Below are positions 7,441 to 48,084 of a DNA stretch of 64,000 bases, piece by piece. The stretch is taken from positions 7,148 to 71,147 of the forward strand of contig JANNXV010000011.1 in the NCBI GenBank assembly GCA_031409815.1. The letters run 5' to 3'. Below the pieces are notes generated by a model that had not been told where the DNA came from, ran no database searches, and worked only from the letters and a program-made list of their open reading frames with translations. Within the stretch, counting starts at the first letter, position 1. Each line of letters starts with the position of its first letter. The DNA is from Bacteroidota bacterium. GTDB lineage: Bacteria > Bacteroidota > Bacteroidia > AKYH767-A > OLB10. The position numbers were made by a program, and so were the translations under genes.

Positions 7441-7521
7441 GTGTCGTTGACTAAGTTAATTTGGTTGATTAAGTTAACTGAGTCAACCAAATTAACTGAG
7501 TCAACCAATCAACTTAATTAA
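7441..7521. repeat. array of the 17-mer TTAACTGAGTCAACCAA (two exact direct copies plus two to three degenerate inverted copies)
   Basis: Exact copies lie at 7474-7490 and 7492-7508. Inverted degenerate copies are GTTGACTAAGTTAA at 7445-7458 and TTGGTTGATTAAGTTAA at 7461-7477. The array sits between the ldcA stop and the yraN start, both on the minus strand. Confidence 0.6.
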
Positions 7522-8597: not shown

Positions 8598-10706
8598 ATG
8601 TCCCGTTATCTCGTTACAGCTGCACTTCCCTATGCAAATGGCCCTGTTCACATTGGTCATATTGCAGGATGTTATTTGCCCGCTGATATTTATGTGCGAT
8701 ACCTTCGTCTGATTAATGAAGACGTGAAATTTATTTGTGGTTCAGATGAGCATGGTGTTCCCATTACCATAAAAGCTCGTAACGAAGGGGTAACTCCTCA
8801 GCAAATAGTTGATAAGTATCATAGTATGATGAAGAACTCTTTCGCTGAGTTTGGAATCTCGTTTGATATTTATTCGCGCACAACTAATAAAGTACATCAT
8901 GAAACGGCACAGACATTTTTTAAAAAGCTGTATGATGACAACGTTTTTACTGAAGAAGTTACTGAGCAATATTATGATGAGGAAGTAAAACAATTTTTAG
9001 CCGACCGTTATATTGAGGGCACTTGTCCGCGGTGTGGTTTTGCGCGTGCTTATGGTGATCAGTGCGAGAATTGCGGATCATCATTAAACCCGACTGATTT
9101 GATAAATCCTGTTTCAAAGCTTAGTGGAAAGGCTCCGGTATTGCGTAACACGAAAAATTGGTTTCTGCCATTAAACAAATTTGAAGCGGATTTAAAAAAA
9201 TGGATTGGCTCCCACCAGGAAGACTGGAAAGTAAATGTGTATGGTCAGTGCATGAGTTGGCTGAACACAGGTTTGCAACCACGTGCAATGACGCGTGACC
9301 TGGATTGGGGGGTGAAAGTTCCGTTGCCTGATACGGAAGGAAAAGTTTTGTATGTGTGGTTTGATGCACCGATTGGTTACATCTCTGCAACGAAAGAGCT
9401 GCTACCAAACGACTGGGAAAAATATTGGAAGGATAAAGATTCAAAACTCATTCATTTTATCGGCAAGGACAATATTGTTTTTCATTGTTTGATATTTCCC
9501 GCCATGTTGAAAGCGCATGGCGATTATTTGTTGCCGACCAATGTTCCTGCCAATGAGTTCTTAAATTTAGAAGGAGATAAAATTTCTACTTCGCGCAACT
9601 GGGCGGTGTGGTTGCATGAGTACCTGATTGATTTTAAAGACAAGCAGGATGTGTTGCGATATGTATTATGTGCAACTGCTCCCGAAACAAAAGACAATGA
9701 TTTTACCTGGAAAGATTTTCAGGCGCGAAACAATAATGAGTTGGTTGCAGTGTTCGGAAATTTTGTGAATCGAACATTGGTGCTTACTCAAAAATATTTT
9801 GAAGGAAAAATTCCTCCACATCACAAGCTGATTGATGCTGACCAGGATTGTATCTCTGCAATACAAGCAGCAAAAAGAAACATTAGCGACAGCATTGAAA
9901 AATTCCGTTTCCGTGAAGCGTTGAATGAACTGATGACGTTAGCGCGTGTCGGAAATAAATATTTAGCCGACACCGAACCATGGAAAGTCTATAAAACAGA
10001 TCCTCAACGTGTAGAAACTATTTTATACATCGCATTAGAAATTACCGCTGCACTTGCTGCATTGTGTGAGCCATTTCTTCCTCATACATCAGCAAGCTTG
10101 TATGCCATGCTCAATCTTGAAAAAGTAGATTGGGTAAAAGATTTGACCGGACAAATAATAAAACCCGGACATGCTTTAGGTGAAGTAAAATTATTATTTG
10201 AAAAAATTGAAGACGAAATGATGGACAAGCAAGTGGAGAAGCTACATGCTTCGAAAGCAGTGAATGCACAGCAGTCGGCAGTTGTCAGTGAAAAGGGGAC
10301 AATTGAAAAAAATGCTTCGACTGTGCTCAGCATGACCCAAGAGCCACAGGTCACACTGAGCGAAGTCGAAGTGTTGAAACCCGAAACTTCCTTCGATGAT
10401 TTCAGCAAAATGGATTTGCGTGTGGCAACTATTATCGCTGCTGAAAAAGTGGAGAAAGCTGATAAATTATTAAAGCTTACGCTTGATACCGGCATTGACC
10501 AGCGCACTGTTGTGAGTGGAATTGCATTGAACTACAAACCCGAAGAAATAATAGGACAACGCGTAACACTACTTGCAAATCTTGCTCCACGAAAAATCCG
10601 TGGTATCGAATCGAAGGGAATGATTTTGATGGCGGAGAATGAAAAAGGGGAATTGTGTTTTATTGCTCCGACTAAGGAGTTTGGGAATGGGAGTGGGATA
10701 AGCTAA
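8598..10706 (+). CDS. metG: methionyl-tRNA synthetase with C-terminal EMAP/tRNA-binding domain
   Basis: 702 aa with HIGH ([11 protein letters not shown]), a zinc knuckle (CPRCGF...CENCG) and KMSKS-like motifs. A C-terminal tRNA-binding domain follows ([22 protein letters not shown]). Confidence 0.95.
10334..10371 (+). repeat. remnant of the GTCATGCTGAGCGAAGTCGAAGC hairpin family embedded in-frame in metG linker
   Basis: GCTCAGCATGACCC at 10325-10338 and CTGAGCGAAGTCGAAG at 10356-10371 match the left and right arms of the 14193-14250 hairpin. Together they are translated as [17 protein letters not shown]. Confidence 0.55.
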
Positions 10707-14169: not shown

Positions 14170-14192
14170 GATGAATAATGCCTCAACACAAT

Positions 14193-14250
14193 GCTTCGAC
14201 TTCGCTCAGCATGACCCACACGTACGGGTCATGCTGAGCGAAGTCGAAGC
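14193..14250. repeat. perfect 25-bp-stem hairpin (GCTTCGACTTCGCTCAGCATGACCC / GGGTCATGCTGAGCGAAGTCGAAGC, loop ACACGTAC); member of a dispersed hairpin family; likely terminator between thrB and thrC
   Basis: The arms at 14193-14217 and 14226-14250 are exact reverse complements. Confidence 0.8.
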
Positions 14251-14262
14251 ACTATCAATTAA

Positions 14263-15567: not shown

Positions 15568-15590
15568 TAGTAAGGTTTGTAAATTCCATT

Positions 15591-15655
15591 TTGTCATGCT
15601 GACGAAGGAAGCATCTCTCTGGTGCCGCGAGATGCTTCCTTCGTCAGCATGACAA
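15591..15655. repeat. perfect 27-bp-stem hairpin (TTGTCATGCTGACGAAGGAAGCATCTC ... GAGATGCTTCCTTCGTCAGCATGACAA); same family as 14193-14250; terminator after thrC
   Basis: The arms at 15591-15617 and 15629-15655 are exact reverse complements. The 11-nt loop is TCTGGTGCCGC. Confidence 0.8.
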
Positions 15656-15731
15656 ACAATAGTGAGCATGATAGAAAATCGCAATAATGACCACTCTGTT
15701 TTCGTAGCTTTGCCGCTGATTAATACCTCAC

Positions 15732-17390
15732 ATGACAAAACAATTACTTTACACATTAATACTTGGTTTTTCTTTTTATTACTCTCAATCACAAACTTTA
15801 ACGGTTAGCACTTCACAATTAAATTTTGGAATTACTTATGAAAACGCACCGGATAGTTTACAACTCACCATTACTAATAATCTTGGAAAAACAGTTAACG
15901 TAACCGGATTTCGTTTTTATACTATTTATGGTCAGCCTGCCTTCTCTTGTTCCAATTCAAATTTTAGTATCGCAGATGGAAGTTCTCAAACTGTCTGGAT
16001 AAAATTTGCTCCAAAGCATAATATTTATCATAATTCAGAATTAGTAATTGAGAATGATGCGCAGCGAGGATATGTAAGCGTAGATTTGTTAGGGCAAGGG
16101 AGATATTCAAAAGCATATTATGCAGCAAGTGAAAATTTGGAAGAGGAATCGTTAAAAACAAATTTGCATAATACAACCGGAGTTGGATACACTATTCTTT
16201 TTTATAATCCTGCGCGCGACACCATGTTTATGTGGCTCGACAATCAAAAAGTAAATGGACAAGGTGCTTCACAAAACACACTTGAATGTGTTTACACGGG
16301 TCGTCAGGCAATCGGATATTTAAATCGCTCCGATTGCCAAACCAACGATATGTTTAATACTGAACACACTTTTCCTCAGGGATTATTCAGTAGCCTTGAA
16401 CCGATGAAAAGTGATTTGCACCATCTATTTCCTACGGATGATGTTGCCAATAATACAAGAGCCAGTTATCCTTTTGGAGTTGTAACAAATGCAACCTGGA
16501 GTGTAGGTGGTTCCAAGTTCGATAATAACACAAATATTTTTGAACCGCGCGATCAACATAAAGGTGCAACAGCAAGAGCGATGTTATACTTTGTAATGCG
16601 TTATCAGAACTACAATAATTTTTTAAATTCACAGGAAAGTATTTTGAAAACATGGAATCATAATTTTCTTCCCTCAACAGTTGAACTCAATCGCAATGAT
16701 GGTATTTATGCTGTTCAAGGAAACCGTAATCCTTTTGTTGATTATCCTCAGTTTGCTGATCGTATCACCTCTTTTTCCTCCACTTCAGTTGCTCCCACCA
16801 CATTTTCGATGGACGAAACTCAGAACGAAATCAATTACGGTTTTGTATTAAGCAGCACAAATACAGTTTATCATTATGTAATTGTGAACAATGGAAATCA
16901 AAATATTCAGTTCAGTAATTTTAGTTTAAGCAATGCTGCGATTTTAAGTTTTAACGGGGGTAGTGGAACTAACGCTTCACTTAATCCCGGAGAAGCATTA
17001 GGTGTGGATATTGATTTGCATCCTTCTTCTTTTGGGATGATAAATGAGACATTAAATTTTCAAACCAATGTACCGGGATCTGCTACTGTGCAGGTTCCAA
17101 TTCTGGCACAGTCAACTGCTGTGGGCGTGGCAGAAATTAATTCGTCATCAACCATAAATATTTATCCTAACCCGGTTGTTGATGAATTGGAAGTTACCGG
17201 TTTCAACTTTAATGTTGGCGATGAGATAAAAATGGTAAACGCACTAGGAAAGGAAACAAAGTCGGAAAGTGTAAATACTAAAATTTCAAATCTGAGGCTT
17301 CGAACTACAGACCTGGCACAGGGAGTTTATTTTTTAATGACCTATCGCAACAATCAGTTAATTGCAAAGGCTCCATTTGTTAAATACTAA
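15732..17390 (+). CDS. secreted endonuclease I family nuclease with T9SS C-terminal sorting domain
   Basis: 552 aa with a signal peptide. FNTEHTFPQ...DLHHLFPTDDVANNTRASYPFG resembles the Endonuclease I (EndA/NucM) active-site blocks. The last ~80 aa (IYPNPVVDELEV...GVYFLMTYRNNQLIAKAPFVKY) match the Por/T9SS CTD pattern. Confidence 0.6.
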   Translation: MTKQLLYTLILGFSFYYSQSQTLTVSTSQLNFGITYENAPDSLQLTITNNLGKTVNVTGFRFYTIYGQPAFSCSNSNFSIADGSSQTVWIKFAPKHNIYHNSELVIENDAQRGYVSVDLLGQGRYSKAYYAASENLEEESLKTNLHNTTGVGYTILFYNPARDTMFMWLDNQKVNGQGASQNTLECVYTGRQAIGYLNRSDCQTNDMFNTEHTFPQGLFSSLEPMKSDLHHLFPTDDVANNTRASYPFGVVTNATWSVGGSKFDNNTNIFEPRDQHKGATARAMLYFVMRYQNYNNFLNSQESILKTWNHNFLPSTVELNRNDGIYAVQGNRNPFVDYPQFADRITSFSSTSVAPTTFSMDETQNEINYGFVLSSTNTVYHYVIVNNGNQNIQFSNFSLSNAAILSFNGGSGTNASLNPGEALGVDIDLHPSSFGMINETLNFQTNVPGSATVQVPILAQSTAVGVAEINSSSTINIYPNPVVDELEVTGFNFNVGDEIKMVNALGKETKSESVNTKISNLRLRTTDLAQGVYFLMTYRNNQLIAKAPFVKY

Positions 17391-17426: not shown

Positions 17427-17498
17427 GGTCTCGTAGTTCAATGGATAGAATAGAAGTTTCCTAAACTTTTGATGCAGGTTCGATTCCTGTCGAGACTA
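17427..17498 (+). tRNA. tRNA-Arg (anticodon CCT)
   Basis: Manual cloverleaf fold. The acceptor stem is GGTCTCG/CGAGACT with a G1-U72 wobble. The D-arm is GTTC...GAAT. The anticodon stem is GAAGT/ACTTT with loop TTCCTAA. The T-arm is GCAGG-TTCGATT-CCTGT, and the discriminator is A. Confidence 0.8.
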
Positions 17499-17512
17499 CA
17501 AAAAATGGGAGT

Positions 17513-17755
17513 ATGTATTATGCATACGTTTTGAAAAGTAAAAATCATGACTATTATTACAAAGGTCATTGTCATGATTTGCAAAAACGACTAACCCAAC
17601 ATAATTCCGGGATGACTGCATCCATACGACCTTATATCCCGTTTGAAATAGTTTATACTGAAAGTTTTGAATCGGAAGCAGATGCAATTCAAAGAGAAAA
17701 ATATTTTAAGTCTGCTGCCGGAAGAAGATATTTAAAAAGGAAAATTGTTCCGTAG
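17513..17755 (+). CDS. small GIY-YIG nuclease family protein (UPF0213/YhbQ-like)
   Basis: 80 aa. YYAYVLKS and YYYKGHCHDLQKRLTQHNSG are the GIY and YIG motifs. A conserved Glu lies in the FEIVYTESFES...REKYFK block. The gene sits between a tRNA-Arg and its degenerate duplicate. Confidence 0.85.
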   Translation: MYYAYVLKSKNHDYYYKGHCHDLQKRLTQHNSGMTASIRPYIPFEIVYTESFESEADAIQREKYFKSAAGRRYLKRKIVP

Positions 17756-17873
17756 CTCAATTCTCGTTCGAACGAACTATTCGGTACAGACGGGGAATAG
17801 AAGTTTCCTAAACTTTTGATGCAGGTTCCCTGCCCGAATGAATTCGTTCAGGCGGGGATTCCTGTCGGGACTA
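17747..17873 (+). other. degenerate duplicate of tRNA-Arg(CCT) interrupted by two mutually complementary insertions (tRNA-like remnant / att-like repeat)
   Basis: 17796-17828 is identical to tRNA positions 23-55. 17858-17873 (ATTCCTGTCGGGACTA) matches the tRNA 3' end with one change. The 5' GTTCCGTAGCTCAAT resembles the tRNA 5' end. The insertions at 17762-17795 and 17829-17857 are roughly reverse-complementary (GAACGAA..ATTCGG..CAG versus CTG..CCGAAT..TTCGTTC). Confidence 0.6.
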
Positions 17874-17880
17874 CAAAAAA

Positions 17881-17996: not shown

Positions 17997-19223
17997 ATGA
18001 AAACCAATCTCACAATCTTAATTATACTATTTGCTTTTATTCAATTTGCAAAAGCACAAAATACGTGGGTGCAGAAGGCAAATTTTGGAGGAATCGGTAG
18101 ACAAGGTGCTGTTGGTTTTAGTATTGGTAACAAAGGATATGTTGGAATTGGATTTGATTACTCTGTTACATTGCATTATCATAAAGATTTTTGGGAATAT
18201 GATTTGTCAAGCAATGCTTGGACTCAAAAGGCTGATTTTGGAGGTACTGCACGTTCAGGTGCGGTGGGATTCTGCATTGGTCCAAAAGGATATTTAGGAA
18301 CAGGAAGTGATTCAAGCTTTTTTTATTATAACGATTTTTGGGAATATGATCCTATTGTAAATACCTGGACACAGAAGGCCGATTTTGGTGGTACTCCTCG
18401 TGTTAATGCAGTGTGCTTCAGTATCGGCACTAAGGGATACATAGGCACCGGGAACGGCTTAAATTTTACTAGTTATAATGATTTATGGGAATATGATCCT
18501 GCTCAGAATATATGGATTCAAAAAACCAGTTTGGGGGGAACCACTAGAAGTAGTGCAGTGGGTTTTAGCATAAATACTAAGGGATATATTTGTAGCGGTG
18601 CAAATTTTGGTTTTGGTGTTTTATTAACCGATTTATGGGAGTTTGATCCATCAGTAAATTCCTGGACACAGAAAGCGAATATGATATTTTCAGGAAGATA
18701 CGGTGCCACAGGATTTAGTATAGGAAATAAAGGATATATCGGCACGGGTAATTATGGAGGGAGTGTTAGAAATGATTTTTGGGAATATAATGTATTGGTT
18801 AACAATTGGACGCACAAAGCAGATTTCGGTGGTGTTGCTCGAGAAGGAGCAATAGGCTTTAGCATCGGGAGTAGAGGATATATCGGTACCGGACAAGACA
18901 TAAACAACAACAATGCAATTGATTTCTGGGAATACATTCCCGACACCACCACATCCACTAATGAACTAACTCCTTCAAGCAATACTTCCATTTACCCCAA
19001 CCCATGCCATGGCAGTTTTACTTTCTCTTATCATAACATAACACCACCATCCATATTAAAAATAATGGATGGAGCAGGTAAAATTGTTTACACACAAAAT
19101 TTATCTGCAATGGAAGGCACACAAAAAATAAATGCAACCGCTTTGCGCGATGGTATTTATTATTATGAGGTGTTGAGTGATAATAATGTGATGGGTGTGG
19201 GGAAGGTGGTAATAGTAAGGTGA
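17997..19223 (+). CDS. secreted seven-repeat beta-propeller (Kelch-like) protein with T9SS C-terminal sorting domain
   Basis: 408 aa with a signal peptide. Seven ~48-aa repeats follow the pattern W.QKADFGG..R.GAVGFSIG.KGY.GTG...DFWEYDP. The C-terminal ~80 aa are of Por-secretion CTD type (IYPNPCHGSFTFSY...GIYYYEV). Confidence 0.55.
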   Translation: MKTNLTILIILFAFIQFAKAQNTWVQKANFGGIGRQGAVGFSIGNKGYVGIGFDYSVTLHYHKDFWEYDLSSNAWTQKADFGGTARSGAVGFCIGPKGYLGTGSDSSFFYYNDFWEYDPIVNTWTQKADFGGTPRVNAVCFSIGTKGYIGTGNGLNFTSYNDLWEYDPAQNIWIQKTSLGGTTRSSAVGFSINTKGYICSGANFGFGVLLTDLWEFDPSVNSWTQKANMIFSGRYGATGFSIGNKGYIGTGNYGGSVRNDFWEYNVLVNNWTHKADFGGVAREGAIGFSIGSRGYIGTGQDINNNNAIDFWEYIPDTTTSTNELTPSSNTSIYPNPCHGSFTFSYHNITPPSILKIMDGAGKIVYTQNLSAMEGTQKINATALRDGIYYYEVLSDNNVMGVGKVVIVR

Positions 19224-22303: not shown

Positions 22304-22347
22304 AAGTGTTGCAATGGTTTACTTTTTCTGAATAGTTTAGCGCTGCA

Positions 22348-23304
22348 ATGGCCACTCATAAAGTTCTACTAGTTGATACTATCCATCCTGTTTTTAATCA
22401 CCTGATCAATCAGGCAGGAATTCAATGTGATGACGGAACACATTTATCGAAAGAAGAAATCATCGAAAGAATAAATGAATATGACGGTATAGAAATACGC
22501 AGCAGGTTTAAAATTGATAAGGCTTTTCTGGATCAATGCAATCGTCTAAAATTTATTGCACGAGCCGGTGCCGGAATGGAGAACATTGATGTAAAACTTG
22601 CTTATGAAAAAGGAATTGTATGTATCAATGCTCCTGAAGGCAATCGCGATGCAGTGGGTGAGCACGCCATCGGAATGTTGTTGATGTTTTTCAATCATTT
22701 AAAACGAGCGGATGCAGAAGTGCGCCAGGGAATTTGGAAACGCGAAGAAAACCGCGGAACAGAATTGCAGGGAAAAACAGTGGGAATCATCGGTTTTGGA
22801 AATATGGGTTCCGCTTTCGCGGAAAAACTGAAAGGCTTTGGAGTAAGAATTTTGGCATATGATAAATACATTACCATTGATCAAACTAATTTTCCATATG
22901 TAACACAAACCACTTTAGAAACAGTATTTGAACAAACAGATATTCTCAGCCTGCATATTCCGCTAACTGCCGAAACAAATTATTTAGTTAATGATTCCTT
23001 TTTTCAACAGTTTAAAAAACCAATTTACGTTATCAATACAGCAAGAGGCAAAGTGGTGGACACAAATGCATTGATGAATCAATTAAAAGCTGGAAGTGTA
23101 ATTGGTGCTTGCTTGGATGTGTTAGAATACGAAAGCATTTCGTTTGAACAATTGGCGCATGCCAACATGCCCGAAGCATTTCAATATTTAGTACAATCAG
23201 AAAAAGTAATTCTAAGCCCTCACATTGGTGGATGGACGCACGAATCGAATGAAAAGATTGTACGCGTTCTGGCAGAAAAAATAATTCAGTTATTAAAAAA
23301 ATAA
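22348..23304 (+). CDS. D-isomer-specific 2-hydroxyacid dehydrogenase (D-3-phosphoglycerate dehydrogenase-like)
   Basis: 318 aa. An NAD-binding motif (GKTVGIIGFGNMGSAFA) and a catalytic His region (LSPHIGG) are present. Confidence 0.8.
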   Translation: MATHKVLLVDTIHPVFNHLINQAGIQCDDGTHLSKEEIIERINEYDGIEIRSRFKIDKAFLDQCNRLKFIARAGAGMENIDVKLAYEKGIVCINAPEGNRDAVGEHAIGMLLMFFNHLKRADAEVRQGIWKREENRGTELQGKTVGIIGFGNMGSAFAEKLKGFGVRILAYDKYITIDQTNFPYVTQTTLETVFEQTDILSLHIPLTAETNYLVNDSFFQQFKKPIYVINTARGKVVDTNALMNQLKAGSVIGACLDVLEYESISFEQLAHANMPEAFQYLVQSEKVILSPHIGGWTHESNEKIVRVLAEKIIQLLKK

Positions 23305-23306
23305 AC

Positions 23307-23693
23307 ATGAGTGAACGACAAAATATTTCATCCAATTCACCGTGGGAGGACGTAGTTGGTTATTCGCGTGCGGTTCGTGTTGGCAATTTGATAGAAGTAT
23401 CGGGCACCACTTCCGTTGATGGAGATCAGATTATTGGAAAAGGAAATGTTTACGAGCAAACTAAATTTATTTTTCAGAAAATAGAAAAGGCATTACAACA
23501 AGCAGGATCAGGATTGCAGGATGTGGTGCGAACACGCATGTATGTAACCGATATTTCGAAATGGGAAGAAATTGGAAAAGCACACGCAGAATTTTTTAGC
23601 ACCATTAAACCTGCCGCAACAATGGTAGAAGTAAACGCTTTAATTAACCCGGAGTTGTTGATTGAAATTGAAGTGACAGCTTATCTTAAGTAA
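23307..23693 (+). CDS. ridA: RidA/YjgF family protein
   Basis: 128 aa with a YjgF-like fold signature (RVGNLIEVSGTT...RTRMYVTDI...MVEVNALI). Confidence 0.75.
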   Translation: MSERQNISSNSPWEDVVGYSRAVRVGNLIEVSGTTSVDGDQIIGKGNVYEQTKFIFQKIEKALQQAGSGLQDVVRTRMYVTDISKWEEIGKAHAEFFSTIKPAATMVEVNALINPELLIEIEVTAYLK

Positions 23694-23742
23694 GTTTGTA
23701 AAAGAAGAAATGAGATGGTGGGTAATAATGCGCGTTTATTTT

Positions 23743-23768
23743 TTGCAGGTCAGAAGGAAGACCTGCAA
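23743..23768. repeat. hairpin TTGCAGGTC-agaaggaa-GACCTGCAA at 3' end of T9SS-cargo gene; mirror partner at 25386-25412
   Basis: Perfect 9-bp stem. The loop is the reverse complement of the loop of the 25386-25412 hairpin. Confidence 0.6.
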
Positions 23769-23784
23769 AGGCGAAATTGTTTAC

Positions 23785-25293
23785 TTATTCTTTAATGACT
23801 TTCACACTTGCAACTTTTTCACCCCATTGCATCTTACAAAAATAAATTCCCGGAGCATGTTTAGTAATATCCACCTGTTTATACTGACTCCACTGTGCCA
23901 CTTCATCTTTAAAAATTAAATTACCGTTAACATCATACACCTGCAACAAACCTTGTTTGTCATGCACATTAAACCACAATGTAAAATGACCATCATTGGG
24001 GTTTGATAAAACTTTAATGCTTTCTTTATTTGGTGGATGCTCCGCAATACCAACATGAATACTATCACAAATACTTGCGCTATCTGCACCCAAAAAATAA
24101 TTTGGATGGTTTGGTAAAGTGTTGAAATAGTAAGCCGGAAGTTGAATAGCATGTTGAACTAAACCACAAGCTAAACCTAAACTATCTGGATTATTTATAA
24201 CATGGATATGAAATGTGCCATTGCCTGTGGTGATATAAATTTTCCCATTTGAAGCTAATTCAGCATTATCGAAGACTGTAGCAAATGGCGGTTGAGGAGA
24301 ATAAAAGCCATCCCACGCTGCGACAACTATTTTGGTGCTTGCTAAATTTGGATTAGTTATATCGTATTGGTAAACAGAATCTATATTGCAAACGTAAAGA
24401 AGGTTTGAATTAGACGAAAATTCCACTCCCCCTCCATAGCCATTACTTTGAGGTATGATAAGATGAATAGGATTGGTAAATTGCCCTGTACACCTGTCAA
24501 AATCAAAAACCTCTAAATTTCCTGTAGTAGTGTAATTTGCGAATAAATAAGCAAACTTTTTTCCGTCAGGAGAGAATTTTACCTGTCCAAATCCATTTAT
24601 TCTGTTTATTCCAATATTTTGAGTATAGGGACCATTAATACCGTTTGGTGTTACTAAAAACTTATATATCAAATCTGTATTCGTCTGCATACACACAATC
24701 CACCAATCTCTACCATTACCGTGCTTGCAAGCTGTTATCTTTCCCATATTGATTGTATCGGATATTAATACAACATTTTTATTTGAAGTAACAGCTCCTT
24801 TGCCATTATTCAAACTCATATCAATTTCACTGTAGTACAAATGCAGTGTTCTACTATAGAAAGGTGCGTAATCAGGAACAGAATGAAATAAATAAAATAA
24901 ATGATTACTGTTTGGTTCAGGGATTATAAGACAAGCCTGTGGAACTGGCAGACCATTGGGTTCATTAATTCTAATTCCGCTTGGGCTTATATTATCTCCA
25001 TTTAACATAATTGTATCGGTCGCATCAGCAATGTCATAACCATTGGTATAAAATAACATATTTCCTGATGAATCAGAAATATTTGCATGAGCACGGCTAA
25101 GGTCTAATGGACGGTAACCAATATAGTTTATAACAGGACTACTACTAATAAAATCAATGTTAAATCCACCCCAAGGTAGTCCTGCGGAATTATCATAGCC
25201 CATGTACCATAAATTATCAATGCCTTGATTTTGTGCAAACATTTTGATGAAACAGCATAAAAATATCAGCAGCAGAAATAAACTCTTTTTCAT
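23785..25293 (-). CDS. secreted protein with T9SS C-terminal sorting domain (paralog of 48085..49458)
   Basis: 502 aa. A signal peptide is followed by QNQGIDNLWYMGY. The C-terminal ~80 aa are Por CTD-like (KVLSNPNDGHFTLWF...GIYFCKMQWGEKVASVKVIKE). It shares an N-terminal QNQ.NNWYFGY.AG.NF block and overall layout with the 48085 gene. Confidence 0.6.
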   Translation of the reverse strand: MKKSLFLLLIFLCCFIKMFAQNQGIDNLWYMGYDNSAGLPWGGFNIDFISSSPVINYIGYRPLDLSRAHANISDSSGNMLFYTNGYDIADATDTIMLNGDNISPSGIRINEPNGLPVPQACLIIPEPNSNHLFYLFHSVPDYAPFYSRTLHLYYSEIDMSLNNGKGAVTSNKNVVLISDTINMGKITACKHGNGRDWWIVCMQTNTDLIYKFLVTPNGINGPYTQNIGINRINGFGQVKFSPDGKKFAYLFANYTTTGNLEVFDFDRCTGQFTNPIHLIIPQSNGYGGGVEFSSNSNLLYVCNIDSVYQYDITNPNLASTKIVVAAWDGFYSPQPPFATVFDNAELASNGKIYITTGNGTFHIHVINNPDSLGLACGLVQHAIQLPAYYFNTLPNHPNYFLGADSASICDSIHVGIAEHPPNKESIKVLSNPNDGHFTLWFNVHDKQGLLQVYDVNGNLIFKDEVAQWSQYKQVDITKHAPGIYFCKMQWGEKVASVKVIKE

Positions 25294-25385
25294 GTTATGT
25301 AGTCTTTGACTTAGTGGATGACTGCTAATTTTCCTTTATCAATTACAGTACCATTGCATAAAACCGAATAGTGAAATATTCAGCC

Positions 25386-25412
25386 GATGCAGGTGTTCCT
25401 TCCACCTGCATC
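25386..25412. repeat. hairpin GATGCAGGTG-ttccttc-CACCTGCATC upstream of T9SS-cargo gene; mirror partner of 23743-23768
   Basis: Perfect 10-bp stem. The stem core GCAGGT and the loop are the reverse complement of the 23743 hairpin. Confidence 0.6.
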
Positions 25413-25461
25413 AAACAATGAATGCTGTTGGTGGACGGAACAACAACAGCGAAAAAAAAAT

Positions 25462-25517
25462 CTTTAATTAACCCTGACTTGCTAATTGAAATTGAAGTGA
25501 CTGCTTATGTAAAGTAG
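25462..25517 (+). pseudogene. orphan 3'-terminal fragment of a ridA paralog (encodes ...ALINPDLLIEIEVTAYVK*)
   Basis: About 85% identical to the ridA 3' end at 23638-23693, in frame and ending in a stop. Upstream homology is absent: it is preceded by CGAAAAAAAAAT rather than ridA sequence. Confidence 0.7.
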
Positions 25518-25567
25518 CATCCATTTGATTTTATAACTAACTGCTACAAAATAAAGCTGTTTTTCCT

Positions 25568-27979
25568 TCACTTCATCGGTTGCAAAATCAATGTACCGGT
25601 TTTATTACTTAAAATTTCTTTCTTGTTCATTTTTTGTTTGCGCAGCTTACCGGTGTTATACATAACAGCCTGGTCGTTGTAATAATGGCTCATCACATTG
25701 CCCGACTGACCGGTAGGCAAAACACTTTTTGAATTTTCTACATCTGCAAAATCCAGCACTATGCGCATGGCTGGTCCAAAAGTGGATTTGTAAATTCCTT
25801 TTTCGTTTAAATCAAATCCGATATTATTAATTACTTCGTTGCCACCCGGCACAGCATTGGGGCCTACGTTAAACATCAGGTTAAACGGTTTTTTCATTCC
25901 AATGGGATGTGTTTCTTCTAAAAAGTGAACGCTTCCCCATTCCCAATTATTTACATCAGTACCCAGTTGTGCCACCAGGTCGTTAATGGTTTTGTCAAAT
26001 GCTTCGTTAAAAATTAAGCTTCGCGATTCCTTAAATTTTTTGGTGCGTATATTATCCCACCAAAGTGAGTTGCCATCATTAATCAATTTTGGCAAAGTGT
26101 TTTTCATCACATGCGTTTTTAAAAATGCATTGAAATCGGTTTCGCCCAATTCGTCTTTCATGGAGTAAGCAAGCACCCAATAAATCAACTTATAATAAAT
26201 GGTAGGTGCAATATCCAATAACTGATGATCGCCATTCCAGGCAAGCAACGCTTTGTATGCATTGTAATGTGTTTGCGTTTTGTTGGCTAAAGATTTGTTA
26301 ACCTGTTCAAGAATAATTTTAACATTTGAAGTAGCAGATAAAGACACCGCATCAATATTTATGCGTTGCATATCTTCAATTGAATAAATGGATTTATCAC
26401 TCAGCAATTGTATAATGCGGTTAGCACGATCGTCAGGTACATAATAGCCGGGATATAATTTTCCCTGCACACTATCCGGTTGCCCATTGGCACTGTACAC
26501 AAAACCGGAAGGTGGATTTTCCGATTGTGGATTGTCTTTAAAATCATAAAAGCCTTTTACTTCTTCTTTACCCGAAATGCCGTCCAACAACAACACCGGA
26601 TTTACTTTATCAGCGCGTTTCATCAATCGTGCAGCAGCATACCATGCAATATTTCCTGTCGAATCGCCATACATGATATTGAGTCCTGGCGAAGTAATTT
26701 CTGAAGCCACCGTTCTCACTTCATCCATACTTTGTGCATGATTTAACCGATACGTACTTTGCACCAAATTGCTTGGGAATTTCAAATACGTCCAGTAAAC
26801 AGAAACAGCATCTTTGGTGATGTGTTTCCACTCAGGCATTACGCCTTGAACCAATGGACCATGTTGGCTTATTCGTACAAATAATTTATGATCAGGTTCG
26901 TTTTTAACCTTCACTATTTTTTCTATCACCTTTAAAGGAACCCACTGTTTGTTTTCCAAAACTTTAAACTTGTCATCTTTTTTAATTCGTTCAGTATAAA
27001 AATCTACATCATCGTTTTCGAACATGGTGAGGCCAACACTGCAAAAATGATTATGACCAATGGGTGCAAACGGAAATCCTGCCAAATGATTACCATAAAA
27101 ACTGTAGCCCGGATATTCAATATGTGCTTCGTACCAAACAGATGGCTGAGCATAACCGATATGTGTATCGTTAGCAAAAAGCACTTTGCCTGAGCTTGAA
27201 AGCTTTGGACTAAGCACCCAGCCATTGCTTCCAACAAAGGGAGGCACCGGCAATTTGTCGAGCATTGCACTTACGGTGTTTTGCATGGGAGCAGAAGTAG
27301 CATTGGTGTCGGGATGGTAATTTAAATTTAACAAGGTGCCGGGCACATAAGCTGTTGCCAGGTCATTTAAATAGCTATTTCCAAGTTTAGCCTGAATGGC
27401 GCTCATTAAAGGATCGGTGCGAAAACCCATTGCAAAATTAAAGGCCATGTATCCGGTGGCTAGATAAATATCACGAGGGATAAACTTTTGTTTTGGTATG
27501 CCAAGCATGGTAAACTCTACCGGTGTTCTGCCTTTTTCAATAAAACTATTGATACCATTCAAATAAGAAAATGCAGCGCGCTGATAAGGCTGCGAAATAC
27601 CTGAGAGATACATTTTGGTTGAAGAGTCGGCTTGTTCTTCTAAACAAAGCGTCTTAAAAAAATGATCAATGCTGATAAAATCTTTCCCAAAAACTTCACT
27701 GAGTCTTCCGGTGGCAACTCTTCTAATCATTTCCATCTGAAACAAACGATCCTGAGCATGCACATATCCTAAAGCAAAATAAGCATCCTCTTCGTTATTT
27801 GCATAAATATGAGGCACACCATAAAAATCGAATGTTATCGAAACTTTTTCGTTTATTCCTTTCAGTTGAACCGATCCTGCATATTGGGGTTTTTGAGAAG
27901 TGAGGTAAATAAGAATTGTTATTGCAGCTACAATAAGCAGTATAAAAAGTATAGCAAATGTTTTACGAATGATATGCAT
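25568..27979 (-). CDS. penicillin acylase family protein (peptidase S45; possible acyl-homoserine-lactone acylase)
   Basis: 803 aa. An N-terminal membrane anchor is present. FDFYGVPHIYANNEEDAYFALGYVHAQDRLFQMEM is a characteristic S45 N-terminal block. The putative Ntn nucleophile is GSNGWVLSP. Confidence 0.8.
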   Translation of the reverse strand: MHIIRKTFAILFILLIVAAITILIYLTSQKPQYAGSVQLKGINEKVSITFDFYGVPHIYANNEEDAYFALGYVHAQDRLFQMEMIRRVATGRLSEVFGKDFISIDHFFKTLCLEEQADSSTKMYLSGISQPYQRAAFSYLNGINSFIEKGRTPVEFTMLGIPKQKFIPRDIYLATGYMAFNFAMGFRTDPLMSAIQAKLGNSYLNDLATAYVPGTLLNLNYHPDTNATSAPMQNTVSAMLDKLPVPPFVGSNGWVLSPKLSSSGKVLFANDTHIGYAQPSVWYEAHIEYPGYSFYGNHLAGFPFAPIGHNHFCSVGLTMFENDDVDFYTERIKKDDKFKVLENKQWVPLKVIEKIVKVKNEPDHKLFVRISQHGPLVQGVMPEWKHITKDAVSVYWTYLKFPSNLVQSTYRLNHAQSMDEVRTVASEITSPGLNIMYGDSTGNIAWYAAARLMKRADKVNPVLLLDGISGKEEVKGFYDFKDNPQSENPPSGFVYSANGQPDSVQGKLYPGYYVPDDRANRIIQLLSDKSIYSIEDMQRINIDAVSLSATSNVKIILEQVNKSLANKTQTHYNAYKALLAWNGDHQLLDIAPTIYYKLIYWVLAYSMKDELGETDFNAFLKTHVMKNTLPKLINDGNSLWWDNIRTKKFKESRSLIFNEAFDKTINDLVAQLGTDVNNWEWGSVHFLEETHPIGMKKPFNLMFNVGPNAVPGGNEVINNIGFDLNEKGIYKSTFGPAMRIVLDFADVENSKSVLPTGQSGNVMSHYYNDQAVMYNTGKLRKQKMNKKEILSNKTGTLILQPMK

Positions 27980-45236: not shown

Positions 45237-47102
45237 ATGAAAAAATATTTAGCACTCTTGCTTGTGATGGTTGTTGGTTGCAACCAATCTGCAAAAAAAA
45301 ATTCTGAAAACACAGAAAACATAACCGTTAATGATGAGCACTCGTTTGCGAAACCGAATGAGGCTGTTGTCAAACATCTTGATCTCAATTTAAAAGTTGA
45401 TTTTGAAAAAAAGCAGCTCGCAGGTAAAGCCACACTCACTATTGAAAATATTGCAAAAGGAAACAACTTACATCTGGATACACGTGACCTGAATATTATT
45501 GCGATCACTTTGGATGAGAATAGTATTACCACCTTTGAGATGAAACCTGCTGTTGCTATTCTTGGTCAGGAATTAATTGTGGCCATTAAACCGGAAACCC
45601 AAAAAGTAAATATTGAATACACTACATCTGCCGAAGGTGGTGCAGTGCAGTGGTTGAGTCCTGCACAAACTGCCGGAGGCAAGCAACCTTTTTTATTTAC
45701 ACATAGCGAAGCCATACTGGCACGTACTTGGATTCCTTTACAGGACAGTCCGGGAATAAGATTTACCTACGATGCAACCATCCAATGCCCACCCAATTTA
45801 ATGGCAGTGATGAGCGCTGAAAACGATACGCTACTGCATTCAGATGGTGTCTATCATTTTCATATGCCACAGCCTATCCCATCTTACCTGATGGCATTGG
45901 CAGTAGGCGATTTAAAATTTCACTCGTATGATAATCGCAGTGGTGTTTTTGCCGAACCGGTAACATTGCCAAAAGCTGCCAACGAATTAGTTGATATACC
46001 GCGCATGATTGCAGCAGCCGAAGAATTGTATGGCCCTTATGCCTGGGGCCGTTATGATGTGTTGATATTGCCTCCAAGTTTTCCTTTTGGGGGAATGGAA
46101 AACCCACGGCTCACTTTTGCAACTCCTACTATTCTGGCTGGCGATCGTTCATTAGTTGCATTGATAGCGCATGAATTAGCACATAGCTGGAGCGGCAACT
46201 TAGTTACCAATGCAACCTGGAACGATTTCTGGCTCAATGAAGGCTTTACCGTGTATTTTGAAACACGCATTATGGAAAAATTATTTGGTAAAGACTATGC
46301 AGATATGTTAACCGTTCTGGGGAAAGGCGATCTTGATGGTACCATCGCGGATTTAGGAGATAAAAATCCTGACACACATCTTTATCTCAACCTTAAAGGA
46401 CGTGATCCGGATGAGGGCGTGAGTGATATTGCGTATGAGAAAGGAAGATTCTTTCTAACCAGTATAGAACAAACGGTGGGTCGTGATAAATGGGATTTGT
46501 TCTTAAAAAAATATTTTACCGAAAATGCTTTTCACAGCATGACCACTGAAATGTTTCTGGCATATCTTGATAAAGAACTTATCAAAAGTGACACCGCACT
46601 CAAAAACAATTTGCACATACAAGAATGGGTGTATAGTCCTGGATTGCCTGCTAATTTTCCAATTGTAACTTCTGCTGAATTAGATAAGGCAAAAGCAGCT
46701 GCTAATGATTTTATGAAAGGAACATCGCCAGCAAAAATCAATACTCAAGGTTGGACCACACACCACTGGTTGCAGTTTTTACGTGCCATGCCCAACGAAC
46801 TTACAACTGAGCAAATGAAATCTTTGGATGCACAATTTCAATTTACCGAAAGTGGTAATTCAGAAATTCTTTGCGACTGGTTGCGGCATTGTATCAGCAG
46901 CAATTATTCAGCAGCGGATTTAACCCTCGATCAATTTTTGATGAATGTAGGAAGACGCAAATTTTTACGACCGCTCTATGGCGATCTAATAAAAACTCCA
47001 TCTGGCAAAGAAAAGGCAAAAGCAATTTATGCCAGGGCAAGGCCGGGCTATCATTCAATTGCTACCACAACTTTGGATGAGATGCTGGGGGTGCCACAGT
47101 AA
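45237..47102 (+). CDS. M1 family zinc aminopeptidase (LTA4 hydrolase-like) lipoprotein
   Basis: 621 aa with a lipoprotein signal (LLVMVVGCNQS), GGMEN, HELAHSWSGN (HExxH) and a downstream WLNEGFTVY Glu ligand. Confidence 0.85.
   Translation: MKKYLALLLVMVVGCNQSAKKNSENTENITVNDEHSFAKPNEAVVKHLDLNLKVDFEKKQLAGKATLTIENIAKGNNLHLDTRDLNIIAITLDENSITTFEMKPAVAILGQELIVAIKPETQKVNIEYTTSAEGGAVQWLSPAQTAGGKQPFLFTHSEAILARTWIPLQDSPGIRFTYDATIQCPPNLMAVMSAENDTLLHSDGVYHFHMPQPIPSYLMALAVGDLKFHSYDNRSGVFAEPVTLPKAANELVDIPRMIAAAEELYGPYAWGRYDVLILPPSFPFGGMENPRLTFATPTILAGDRSLVALIAHELAHSWSGNLVTNATWNDFWLNEGFTVYFETRIMEKLFGKDYADMLTVLGKGDLDGTIADLGDKNPDTHLYLNLKGRDPDEGVSDIAYEKGRFFLTSIEQTVGRDKWDLFLKKYFTENAFHSMTTEMFLAYLDKELIKSDTALKNNLHIQEWVYSPGLPANFPIVTSAELDKAKAAANDFMKGTSPAKINTQGWTTHHWLQFLRAMPNELTTEQMKSLDAQFQFTESGNSEILCDWLRHCISSNYSAADLTLDQFLMNVGRRKFLRPLYGDLIKTPSGKEKAKAIYARARPGYHSIATTTLDEMLGVPQ
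47076..47102 (+). repeat. left copy of 27-bp direct repeat GATGAGATGCTGGGGGTGCCACAGTAA (3' end of aminopeptidase gene)
   Basis: Identical to 47863-47889. Together the two copies flank the REP-RAYT insertion. Confidence 0.9.
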
Positions 47103-47862: not shown

Positions 47863-47889
47863 GATGAGATGCTGGGGGTGCCACAGTAA
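47863..47889 (+). repeat. right copy of 27-bp direct repeat GATGAGATGCTGGGGGTGCCACAGTAA
   Basis: A perfect copy of 47076-47102, including the TAA stop of the aminopeptidase gene. Confidence 0.9.
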
Positions 47890-48084
47890 TTTTACTAAAG
47901 AAAAAAGTTTTTGGAAGAGGCGAGTGTGTAGGTGAGTTTTGTTGTGGATTTGGTGGAGGGTTAGCGAAGTGCTTCTAAAAAGGAGAAACTGCGAATACTG
48001 AAATAACAAACAATGCTTTCTTTAGAGTGGTTGTTGCACAATCCCGTACATTCGTACAATATCTTATCTGATCCCAACAACAAT

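Follow-up and report, generated by a model that had tools for sequence, protein, structure and literature searches.

A T9SS-cargo gene between putative REP elements and a doubled ridA 3' end in an uncultured Bacteroidota bacterium

An insert of about 1.8 kb lies within the last 19 codons of ridA in one species-level lineage, an uncultured Bacteroidota bacterium. It spans positions 23638-25461 of the window, i.e., the whole stretch of 64,000 nucleotides that was analysed. The ridA gene stays intact because the inserted DNA opens with a ridA 3' end of its own. A second, orphan ridA end lies at the far side, 50 nt from the acylase stop codon, the position where relatives keep their ridA end. Between the two ends, a pair of inverted hairpins that appear to be REP elements encloses a single T9SS-cargo gene. 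The favoured proposal, for which the case seems to us evenly balanced, is a recent insertion of congeneric DNA into the ridA tail by one homologous and one illegitimate junction, followed by exchange of the cargo within the REP-bounded slot.

Anatomy of the insert

The features of the locus are as follows (window positions, strand, description).

23307..23693, + strand: ridA (RidA/YjgF family), intact, 128 aa; Pfam PF01042, E = 2.6e-30
23638..23693, + strand: 3' end that ridA currently uses (...NALINPELLIEIEVTAYLK*, stop TAA), repeat copy 1
23694..23742, no strand: spacer of 49 nt from the ridA stop to the first REP; missing in empty-site relatives
23733..23778, + strand: putative REP copy h1, with T-rich 5' flank, hairpin TTGCAGGTC-AGAAGGAA-GACCTGCAA (23743-23768) and 3' tail AGGCGAAATT ending at 23778
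23779..25378, no strand: variable cargo segment, 1600 nt; an unrelated 1291-nt segment in the sister genome L085
23785..25293, - strand: T9SS-cargo gene, 502 aa; Por_Secre_tail CTD, Pfam PF18962, E = 8.9e-9, residues 431-500
25379..25421, - strand: putative REP copy h2, inverted relative to h1, with hairpin GATGCAGGTG-TTCCTTC-CACCTGCATC (25386-25412) and T-rich 5' flank on the - strand
25413..25461, no strand: spacer of 49 nt from h2 to the orphan, with a separate hairpin, GCTGTTG-N13-CAACAGC (25423-25449), and, at the junction, an A9 run
25462..25517, + strand: orphan ridA 3' end (KSLINPDLLIEIEVTAYVK*, stop TAG), repeat copy 2
25568..27979, - strand: penicillin-amidase family (acylase) gene, the right neighbour; Pfam PF01804, E = 1e-185; convergent with ridA in all relatives

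The T9SS-cargo gene is the only family-matched ORF inside the insert, and its stop codon is 6 nt from the left edge of the variable segment. Its product combines a signal-peptide-like N-terminus (MKKSLFLLLIFLCCFIKMFAQ...) with a C-terminal sorting domain, as T9SS cargo proteins do, and this CTD alone matches Pfam or PDB. The protein family is very large (2984 homologs at E < 1e-10). Its nearest non-self members, 55-61% identical (best 61%), are found in other contexts, where they adjoin giant T9SS proteins and where neither ridA nor a GCAGGT REP is present. No identical protein is on record for the 23785..25293 ORF, so no recently moved copy of the cargo was found. The window also holds T9SS/gliding genes (GldD). 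A distinct composition of the cargo was considered and rejected, as its GC content of 0.34-0.36 resembles that of its neighbours. Terminal inverted repeats within the cargo were likewise set aside; the window, but not L085, shows a weak 8/11 match, which is taken as chance.

The spacing around the cargo is symmetric (stop-49 nt-h1 ... h2-49 nt-orphan) and looks att-like. BLAST matches to the left spacer (23694..23742) were obtained only in L081, L085, and L086, and to the right spacer (25413..25461) only in L085.

The doubled gene end and the empty-site relatives

The earlier note on this DNA had reported that the ridA 3' end recurs at 25462-25517, in frame and with a stop codon, and this was borne out. 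The two copies (23638-23693 and 25462-25517) are 1824 nt apart, match at 48 of 56 nt, and are both in frame and closed by a stop (TAA and TAG, respectively). A degenerate pattern fitting both finds exactly 2 sites in 64 kb, where shuffles expect 0.00. The statement that the orphan has no ridA homology upstream needs correction, as weak similarity persists for about 20 nt further, and the repeat then measures 76 nt at 79%. The copies share no exact match longer than 17 nt, and a 13-nt identity block, CTTTAATTAACCC, stands at the left edge of both and looks att-like. Homologs of the window ridA are named enamine deaminase RidA by JGI. Among database ridA proteins, the C-terminus of the window ridA is confined to this lineage (P0121, P0122), and the peptide encoded by the orphan is the C-terminus of the ridA homologs P0124 and P0133.

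The differences between the ends are structured by codon. The full end and the orphan differ at 9 of 57 nt, three at first, none at second, and six at third codon positions. Compared with the functional ridA of the closest relative, L087, the orphan has 6 differences in 57 nt, all of them synonymous third-position changes, with no indels (P about 0.001 without codon structure). The full end has 9 differences in 57 from the same gene, distributed over codon positions as three, none, and six. Over the whole ridA gene, the window and L087 are 85% identical (nt). By this measure and by the codon pattern, the copies are about as distant as two species, and neither bears signs of neutral decay. The suggestion that the orphan once belonged to a functional ridA is thus upheld. 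To judge from their sequences, the two ends derive from two functional alleles that differ as orthologs do, and are not the product of a target-site duplication.

The earlier note had also offered a "duplication of its target" as an origin, and an in-situ target-site or local tandem duplication at insertion, with later divergence of the unused copy, would indeed place direct repeats on both sides of the insert. This origin is disfavoured and seems very improbable. The divergence between the copies (9/57) is on a par with that from the ridA of another species (6-9/57), no difference falls at a second codon position, and the orphan lacks indels and differs from a working ridA only synonymously. 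Repeats of the transposon type are short and initially identical; the present repeat is 56 nt long and 84-86% identical, with codon-structured differences. Moreover, the window and L085 share an identical orphan although they differ at other places, so the insertion must be recent relative to the 14-16% divergence of the copies.

We also considered which end is resident. The orphan was first read as the native end, as it fits the consensus of the relatives, but this was withdrawn as proof since both copies lie within normal interspecies divergence. The full end (9/57) and the orphan (6/57) are both compatible with the whole-gene divergence of 15% from L087, and neither is provably resident. 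Identity comparisons did not place the left junction of the insert, and the protein collection contains no empty conspecific allele.

The earlier note proposed a synteny comparison for its idea of a cassette inserted between ridA and the acylase gene, and the outcome supports that idea. In six relatives (L001, L002, L087, L088, L089, and L090), ridA is directly convergent on the acylase gene. The distance from ridA to the acylase stop is 17-175 nt, with no T9SS gene and no GCAGGT hairpin between. In L087, the site is empty, and identity to the window is 85% (nt) for ridA and 91% (aa) for the acylase. The gene order HAdh>ridA> <acylase is taken to be the ancestral one. The locus is read as an insertion and not as a paralog scar because these six relatives have ridA directly convergent on the acylase gene. 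The other origin suggested earlier, the "scar of a ridA duplication", in which two full ridA paralogs once surrounded the cargo gene and one was mostly deleted, fits an orphan that is in frame and was clearly once coding. It is nonetheless scarcely credible, as no relative has two ridA genes here; a single ridA abuts the acylase gene in all six, and in the more distant relatives L003-L005 there is none at the acylase site. An ancestral T9SS gene at the site was considered as well. L003 and L004 carry a family member between acylase and HAdh, 36-38% identical, with no ridA and no gene-end repeat, and their sister L005 lacks it; this was judged an independent event.

Since the genome was assembled from the metagenome of a strain-rich sample, a chimeric join of two strains, with a false duplication as its result, could be imagined. 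The probability of such an artefact seems almost negligible. Two independent MAG assemblies, which differ in their cargo, both contain the full structure and with it the right junction. The left junction of each haplotype was assembled again from a separate read set (L081 and L086, two Logan assemblies of separate runs). The longest exact match of 17 nt is also too short to mislead an assembler working at k = 141.

Putative REP elements and a proposed exchange of the cargo

The mirror-image hairpins described in the earlier note do bracket the T9SS gene at the positions given, and their loops are reverse complements of each other; their extent was amended to an inverted repeat of about 40 nt (hairpin plus flanks), which exceeds the stem-loop. 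The palindromes GCAGGTC-AGAAGGAA-GACCTGC (23745-23766) and GCAGGTG-TTCCTTC-CACCTGC (25389-25409) are the sole GCAGGT..ACCTGC palindromes in the 64-kb window (0.00 expected), which thus holds only 2 copies of the REP. Their folding energy is about -11 kcal/mol (z = -3.8 to -5), and they have stems of 9-10 bp and loops of 7-8 nt. The 3' tail of each copy (for h2, TTCAGCC, or GGCTGAA when read on the - strand) is directed into the slot, giving a tail-to-tail pair.

Both hairpins are classed as REP elements because an identical 23-nt core, that of h2, occurs in the REPs on both sides of RAYT-like genes in metagenome contigs (L093, L098, L100). The core TGCAGGTGGAAGGAACACCTGCA with the tail A[AT][GC]GG..GAAA was found in 9 copies on 5 short JGI contigs from two samples. 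The RAYT-like gene of L093, L098, and L100 encodes HUH (PNHFHLIW) and Y (YLHHNP) motifs and matches NCBIfam NF047646 (REP-associated tyrosine transposase) at E = 1.2e-15, with a score of 57.6 bits, short of the curated cut-off of 80. A PDB phmmer search with the L100 RAYT gave no match, and the RAYT-like genes adjoining GCAGGT REPs in metagenome contigs all have an in-frame stop or a frameshift. In L104, a REPIN-like doublet of the same family lies 150 nt upstream of another T9SS-CTD gene. No RAYT cognate to the GCAGGT REP was seen in the 64-kb window. Its only RAYT-like gene (47172-47798), which matches Pfam PF01797 weakly and was settled as to family by NCBIfam, is flanked by a different REP, AAACCTCCGAGGTTT. 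A guide tetranucleotide (GT[AG]G or CGTC) was looked for in the 5' flanks; these are T-rich (tttttt, ttgat, or gctt) and contain no GTAG or CGTC. Bacteroidetes class 2.6 REPs likewise lack a guide tetranucleotide (PMC6006769). Three pattern scans of a viral collection for the REP and the scaffold gave no match.

From these comparisons, h1 and h2 appear to belong to a RAYT-associated REP family and not to be terminators. It is quite improbable that they are plain terminators or operator palindromes, with only incidental REP similarity and with a cargo difference due to ordinary allelic replacement by homologous recombination. The hairpins are located at gene ends, recombination tracts are plentiful around the locus, and the window has many other intergenic palindromes, all of which would suit that explanation. 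However, the terminator scan calls neither hairpin, a T-tract follows neither of them on either strand (a T-run precedes h1), and Rfam has no match at E <= 1 on 23200-25700. Their core and tail are the same as in copies flanking RAYT-like genes in unrelated samples. The hairpins are also missing from all empty-site relatives, and none occurs in 1.5 Mb of related loci outside the ridA-acylase locus. The earlier note had named ordinary terminators at many unrelated gene ends as a result that would count against its reading, and these data speak the other way.

At 97-100% identity, the conspecific genome L085 shares with the window the ridA end, both spacers, h1, h2, and the orphan; its right flank is 97.7% identical to that of the window across 8.6 kb. 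In contrast, its slot contains an unrelated 319-aa T9SS gene on the + strand, versus the 502-aa gene on the - strand of the window. The two cargo segments share no similarity, which rules out that one is an inversion of the other. The last shared base is 23778 and the first shared again is 25379. Each breakpoint is on the cargo side of its hairpin, about 10-12 nt away, where the conserved REP tail ends. Judged by the borders in these two haplotypes, the two REPs seem to bound a slot for one accessory gene. Tracts of 8-15% divergence between the window and L085 (22307-23223, 23450-23606, and 25592-26785) stand out from a background about 99% identical, and recombination with diverged DNA is frequent at the ridA locus.

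An enzymatic exchange of cassettes may be considered for the swap of cargos. A RAYT would nick each strand just past the REP tail, and the intervening DNA would be replaced, in either orientation, by another REP-bounded gene, so that the REP pair would serve as a T9SS-cargo docking site. The breakpoints at the conserved tail end on both sides and in both haplotypes are consistent with it, as are the opposite orientations of the two cargos, the cargo-adjacent flanks that are 97-99% identical against a difference of 8-15% in the genes beyond, and the L104 members of the REP family, which adjoin another T9SS gene. The cuts made by Y1 enzymes fall at a fixed distance from hairpins (PMC6006769). 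We consider this exchange unlikely, however. It is drawn from two haplotypes only, the loops vary in length (7, 8, and 9 nt), none of the RAYTs seen with the GCAGGT REP family is intact, and REPtrons and REPs are not known as cargo movers (PMC6006769). The conserved flanks can be explained otherwise: those next to the insert would be unchanged because imports from empty-site relatives could not cross the non-homologous insert.

Origin of the insert and comparison with known systems

The congeneric import favoured here would start from donor DNA with a REP-flanked accessory gene just downstream of an intact ridA. One junction would be homologous, within or upstream of ridA, and the other illegitimate, 56 nt before the resident stop (homology-facilitated illegitimate recombination). 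The gene end would thereby be doubled, as two different alleles. Later, haplotypes would have swapped cargos, with the conserved scaffold serving for homologous recombination or with the REP tails being cut and joined. The REPs probably give the slot its fixed borders and act as recombination or cleavage hot spots rather than terminators. No such donor arrangement (ridA with the NALINPELL end, spacer, and h1, and no orphan) was encountered.

The layout of an insert with a stranded 3' end occurs twice more in the window. A comparison of the cargo protein with a T9SS paralog in the window had been suggested earlier; the two are 28% identical, and the region adjoining the paralog (47.1-47.9 kb) repeats the layout, at an aminopeptidase gene that holds the RAYT insert. 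The other case is a tRNA-Arg gene with a GIY-YIG insert. Two or three independent events in 64 kb thus all end within the last 50-56 nt of their target. This shared end-point, beyond what random illegitimate junctions would lead one to expect, hints at a directed mechanism.

These cases bear on the main rival explanation, a small integrative, cis-mobilisable module. A circle consisting of cargo, h2, spacer, a mimic of the ridA end, spacer, and h1 would have been put site-specifically into the ridA 3' end by a recombinase encoded elsewhere. The gene would gain a new end and the old one would be stranded, in the manner of e14 and phage 21, whose integration at icd leaves icdC. We regard such a module as possible but doubtful. 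The layout matches e14/icd/icdC and is repeated at the aminopeptidase and tRNA-Arg genes, and one scaffold holds different cargos. Each copy is wholly of one allele type, as expected if the crossover took place at the left edge with its 13 identical nt. The 49-nt spacers are symmetric, and the circularly permuted site has the polarity of a RAYT unit or REPIN. On the other hand, no integrase or recombinase was found in the insert, nor by Pfam in the ORFs covered by the scans (up to about 57 kb of the window), save the RAYT-like and GIY-YIG genes. A further scaffold copy was found neither at another site nor in another lineage, no excised or empty conspecific allele is on record, and the aminopeptidase repeat has no identity block at its left edge.

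REP elements and RAYT enzymes are widespread and are thought to move themselves only, and we know of no cellular role established for either. REP/RAYT systems are currently regarded as cargo-free and domesticated; docking slots, if real, would mean that such systems can also live by carrying cargo. Should REPs or RAYTs fix the slot borders, they would have a part in accessory-gene turnover, a concrete and testable role. T9SS-cargo genes are among the most variable genes of Bacteroidota. A wider generalization, which we hold to be improbable, is that, within this Bacteroidota group, tail-to-tail REP pairs are docking slots in which a RAYT-type single-strand nuclease swaps single accessory genes, and that a slot with a target-end mimic of about 50 nt is a minimal recombinase-less integrative module homing to the 3' ends of housekeeping genes. 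The locus also illustrates how an insertion into a housekeeping gene can be free of cost to the genome, as the incoming DNA supplies a spare gene end. Three cases with three different inserts in 64 kb suggest a common and little-noticed route of gene gain. For annotation, an orphan 3' end may serve as a mark of a recent insertion and of its direction. If ordinary recombination with related DNA holds, the locus would be a well-documented example with no new mechanism.

Homology-facilitated illegitimate recombination, reportedly described by de Vries and Wackernagel in 2002 during foreign DNA uptake, combines one homologous junction in a shared gene with one at a microhomology and imports non-homologous DNA from a related donor. 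It can account for two alleles of a gene end. In contrast to the present cases, it predicts scattered junctions, not three events within the last 50-56 nt, and to our knowledge, it has never been tied to REPs.

The pdif (XerC/D) modules of Acinetobacter plasmids and integron cassettes are single-gene modules with borders at short palindromic sites. As in pdif modules, the flanking sites of the ridA insert are inverted, and the same frame can hold different cargos. An Xer/dif site, however, has 28 bp with two 11-bp arms and a 6-bp centre, whereas the arms here are 7-10 bp and the centre is 7, 8, or 9 nt, varying among h1, h2, and the h1 of L085. Unlike in integron cassettes, there is no attC (R''-L''...L'-R', 57-141 nt) and no intI, and the palindromes are 26-27 nt long and inverted on both sides. 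Unlike both, the ridA insert is chromosomal and lies at the end of a housekeeping gene.

In e14, icd extends into the element, and a C-terminal pseudogene whose differences are mostly synonymous lies at the far end (PMC13626634). Like e14 and phage 21 at icd, the ridA insert occupies the 3' end of a protein-coding housekeeping gene and brings a substitute end that keeps the gene functional. Its direct repeats are likewise the 3' end of the target gene, with the displaced end orphaned at the far side. Nevertheless, e14, a 15-kb prophage, encodes an integrase and is excised upon SOS induction, whereas the ridA insert has 1.8 kb, one cargo gene, and no recombinase, and no excision has been observed for it.

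The Y1 enzymes of the IS200/IS605 type bind subterminal hairpins and cut a short fixed distance away (PMC6006769). The ridA insert resembles these elements in its subterminal hairpins of the kind used by a Y1 HUH enzyme, in the fixed short distance to the breakpoints, and in having no short target duplication. It differs in that IS hairpins have the same orientation on one strand and enclose tnpA, whereas h1 and h2 are inverted with no tnpA between them, and in the 56-nt gene-end repeat that flanks it.

The closest likeness in the hairpins themselves is to REP/REPIN-RAYT systems. REPs are known as preferred sites of insertion (PMC1525189). They are cut and rejoined by TnpA_REP, and RAYT subclasses particular to the Bacteroidetes go with atypical REPs in which GT[AG]G is missing (PMC6006769). 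Shared with these systems are short imperfect palindromes with a conserved tail, an intergenic location at gene ends, inverted copies around a RAYT-like gene (L093, L098, L100), and the REPIN-like doublet of L104. Known REPs and REPINs are gene-free, and REPtrons are not thought to move as units; here, in contrast, tail-to-tail REPs enclose a protein-coding cargo of 1.6 kb that differs between sister genomes.

Two ends of ridA

The locus was found to hold two gene ends of ridA with a single gene between them.

23307-23693, plus strand: ridA (Pfam PF01042), with the C-terminus ...NALINPELLIEIEVTAYLK before the stop
23785-25293, minus strand: T9SS-cargo gene, 502 aa (N-terminus like a signal peptide; Por_Secre_tail domain); sole gene between the ridA-end copies

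The final 56 nt of ridA are seen again at 25462-25517 (48/56 identical, in frame, stop-terminated). This second copy, located beside the acylase gene, is termed the orphan; across the 64 kb, a degenerate pattern spanning both copies matches only these two sites, against an expectation of none from shuffles. The description in the earlier note of a ridA repeat, a single minus-strand T9SS gene and opposed hairpins was borne out as stated.

Related loci were gathered by anchoring on the acylase gene, and four further contigs were obtained via ridA homologs. In the genome collection, the species closest to the window are L001 and L002 (about 80% aa). Both retain the entire neighbourhood, in the order ech-acyP-PSsyn-acylase> <ridA<HAdh ... 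ABC-metK, and their acylase-ridA interval is without genes. The same empty layout, with a stop-to-stop gap of 17-170 nt, is present in L087 and L088 (ridA 89% aa in both; L087 is the closest empty-site relative), L089 and L090. Hairpins of the type flanking the cargo gene are absent from all six loci. The synteny comparison put forward in the earlier note therefore finds ridA next to the acylase gene, and these relatives demonstrate an insertion into the ridA end. Since the site is empty in all six, an ancestor with two paralogs lacks support; a scar of ridA duplication, one of the origins proposed earlier, is hardly credible with nothing between the acylase gene and a single ridA. A more distant clade, with an acylase 57% identical, has a homolog of the cargo gene (36-38%) in the acylase-HAdh interval, and ridA is missing there. 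The homolog occurs in L003 (12802-14088) and in L004 (12473-13860), where it is split in two frames and is probably a pseudogene, and is lacking in their sister L005, so this intergenic site has gained or lost a member of the cargo family independently.

The ridA ends were compared over the last 19 codons.

Differences between ridA ends, split by codon position 1/2/3
Full end (in use) versus orphan: 9 differences in 57 nt; 3/0/6
Orphan versus functional ridA of L087: 6 differences in 57 nt; 0/0/6, all synonymous
Full end versus L087: 9 differences in 57 nt; 3/0/6

With a whole-gene identity of 85% between the ridA of the window and that of L087, these figures mean that the copies are diverged from each other as much as from the ridA of another species; they are two allelic gene ends. 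The orphan has neither indels nor changes at second codon positions, thus no mark of neutral decay, and it is the same in the window and in L085 (GCA_031361985.1), a conspecific sister genome which differs elsewhere. The earlier suggestion that it once belonged to a functional ridA agrees with its purely synonymous differences from L087. The lack of decay, the codon-structured differences and the identity in two genomes make in-situ duplication followed by drift very unlikely. Target-site duplication, also considered earlier, is scarcely tenable for copies which differ like interspecies alleles. Judging by the sequences, one of the two ends was acquired from a ridA that was functional though diverged. 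The orphan is favoured as the resident end, as its peptide KSLINPDLLIEIEVTAYVK is the C-terminus of the ridA homologs P0124 and P0133 and its position, 50 nt from the acylase stop, is where the ridA of relatives terminates, while the divergence figures fall short of proof. Among database ridA proteins, the NALINPELL end in use is restricted to the lineage of the window. The orphan also forms the last part of an ATG-initiated 31-codon ORF (MLLVDGTTTAKKKSLINPDLLIEIEVTAYVK and stop, 25422-25517), which is conserved in L085 and probably fortuitous.

Hairpins and alternative cargos

The cargo gene is bracketed by two inverted hairpins.

23743-23768: h1
25386-25412: h2

They are the sole GCAGGT..ACCTGC palindromes within the window (0.00 expected). 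The loops are reverse complements of each other, and their folding energies are well under those of shuffled controls. Together with a T-rich flank on its 5' side and a tail of about 10 nt on its 3' side, each hairpin makes up an inverted repeat of about 40 nt. Ordinary terminators, which the earlier note named as a refutation of its reading, could be dismissed: no T-tract follows h1 or h2 on either strand, the terminator scan made no call, and Rfam gave no match.

A metagenome scan with the hairpin pattern returned 14 contigs; the element is present in five of these, which stem from two JGI samples. The core is the same as in h2 (TGCAGGTGGAAGGAACACCTGCA), or h1-like in L091, and the tail AAGGGAGGAAA is of the same type as the window tails AAAGGCGAAAT and ATCGGCTGAAT. 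In the contigs L093, L098 and L100, two inverted copies enclose a gene that has an HUH motif (PNHFHLIW) and a tyrosine motif (YLHHNP). This gene matches the REP-associated tyrosine transposase (RAYT) family NCBIfam NF047646 with E = 1.2e-15, a score under the curated cut-off, and is broken by a stop or frameshift. In L104, a REPIN-like doublet of two copies lies 150 nt upstream of another T9SS-CTD gene. The tails point outward around the RAYT gene and in this doublet; in the window's pair, they point inward, at the cargo. The hairpins are palindromes of a family flanking RAYT genes, with two copies within the window and no GTAG tag. Bacteroidetes RAYT subclasses have atypical REPs without the GT[AG]G tag (PMC6006769). 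On this evidence, h1 and h2 are identified as REP elements of a RAYT-associated family. Beside the RAYT-like gene, the REP sits in a tandemly repeated 95-nt unit (L098 1064-1266, L100 765-977) made of a 45-nt conserved leader (GAT.CTGCAC..A.CAAA.TTAATTTTAATCT...), the hairpin and the tail; RAYT-proximal REPs are thus longer than the window copies.

L085 is 97.7% identical to the window at the nucleotide level over 8.6 kb rightward, and most proteins are 98-99% identical. The series from the ridA end through spacer, h1, h2 and spacer to the orphan is common to both genomes. The segment that L085 has between the hairpins is 1291 nt long, unrelated to that of the window, and bears a plus-strand Por_Secre_tail gene of 319 aa. 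The shared sequence ends at 23778 and resumes at 25379, 10 and 7 nt beyond the extended stems (12 and 10 nt beyond the core GCAGGT..ACCTGC stems), and both breakpoints coincide with the end of the conserved REP tail. Alternative cargos therefore occupy one slot with borders at the REP tails. The slot borders and the key inference are drawn from these two haplotypes. The left junction of either haplotype was confirmed in separate Logan assemblies (L081 and L086), and an assembly artefact is most improbable. In L082 (1640-1932), from the same sample, the cargo homolog of highest identity (61%) is followed on its 3' side by a hairpin GGTTGGTG-GGAAGGAAAAAA-CACCAACC, in whose loop the GGAAGGAA motif is found again. 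A palindrome CCGTTGGTG..CACCAACGG in this 3' flank recurs in the L085 cargo segment, in its non-coding tail (L085 3932-4215). Both observations point to further REP-like families associated with T9SS genes.

Similar layouts and palindromes in the window

Two other gene ends in the window are repeated in a similar manner.

45237-47102: M1 aminopeptidase gene, the last 50 nt of which recur at 47840-47889 as an orphan
47172-47798 (47172-47501 + 47613-47798): interrupted RAYT-like gene (NF047646, E = 7.9e-17), between the aminopeptidase-end copies
17427-17499: tRNA-Arg(CCT), then a GIY-YIG gene at 17513-17755 (80 aa; PF01541, E = 3e-13)

The RAYT-like gene is flanked by a different REP, AAACCTCCGAGGTTT, at 47114, 47807 and 47825, with a REPIN inside the gene (47389-47428), and the aminopeptidase orphan begins precisely at the right REPIN edge. 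The aminopeptidase-end copies have 8/21 differences in the first 21 nt (5/8 at third codon positions) and none in the last 27. At the aminopeptidase locus of L106, from the same MAG as L001, the RAYT gene is missing. A T9SS paralog (48013-49458) directly follows the orphan. The 3' part of the tRNA-Arg is copied at 17795-17880, where 34 identical nt precede a 28-nt GC-rich hairpin insertion in the T-arm region; this locus sits between the T9SS cargo genes 15732-17390 (endonuclease I) and 17997-19223 (Kelch). At ridA, aminopeptidase and tRNA-Arg, three inserts of three kinds have each left about 50 nt of a 3' end stranded, which suggests a shared route or a selective filter by which only gene-restoring insertions survive.

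REPIN-like elements are unusually abundant in the genome. Between thrB and thrC lies a palindromic element of 60 nt (GCTTCGACTTCGCTCAGCATGACC...GGTCATGCTGAGCGAAGTCGAAGC), an 84%-identical copy of which is found inside the metG frame (10311-10371 and 14192-14251). This copy is located between the anticodon-binding and tRNA-binding domains, where a palindrome appears to have been inserted in frame into an essential gene. Other long palindromes between genes, which belong to at least four unrelated families, are found at 7446-7505, 15590-15656, 49460-49523 and 57426-57451; palindrome CGTCATTGCGAGGAACGAAGCAAT, with perfect 24-nt stems, directly follows the T9SS paralog. Beyond 57178, no complete ORF of at least 120 aa is among the ORFs listed (57200-64000), and internal repeats at 59460-59622 and 61032-61194 are 69% identical, suggesting that a very large repetitive gene extends past the window end.

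Origin of the insert and known systems

The scaffold adjoining the cargo differs by just 1-3% between the window and L085. Directly outside it, three tracts are 8-15% diverged (HAdh 22307-23223, mid-ridA 23450-23606 and acylase 25592-26785), so recombination with diverged DNA would be frequent around the locus. The two genomes are otherwise about 99% identical, and HAdh is 86% identical at the protein level versus 98-99% for its neighbours. The tracts are explained either by a MAG of mixed strains or by mosaic recombination in which diverged relatives took part.

Import from a congeneric donor through one homologous and one illegitimate junction is, as a whole, an even call. The donor would have had an intact ridA followed by a REP-flanked accessory gene. 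Its DNA would have entered via a homologous junction in ridA, and the illegitimate junction would lie at an A-run, 56 nt ahead of the resident stop. Such a pair of junctions would yield exactly the observed structure, with no need for a dedicated enzyme. Subsequently, cargo may have been exchanged through the conserved scaffold or through the REPs themselves. A RAYT-driven cassette exchange, a reading drawn from the two haplotypes, is quite improbable. The main rival, possible if rather unlikely, is an integrative module like e14 at icd, mobilised in trans. It would fit the following: both ridA-end copies share a block of 13 identical nt at their left edge, the two spacers are symmetric at 49 nt each, the site when circularly permuted has the polarity of a RAYT unit, and the layout recurs in the window. 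However, a recombinase was absent from the insert and from the scanned window ORFs, and neither a second integration site nor an empty conspecific allele was found.

Integration of e14 at icd is the comparison system for gene-end replacement (PMC13626634). The gene end is replaced there as at ridA, but the e14 integrase has no counterpart in the ridA insert. The ridA insert is not an integron cassette, an Xer/dif module or an IS200/IS605 copy; for each of these, a defining feature was tested and is lacking. To our knowledge, a tail-to-tail REP pair with exchangeable protein-coding cargo has not been known so far. The ridA insert is real, well delimited and recurrent, and REPs are already recognised as insertion hot spots (PMC1525189).
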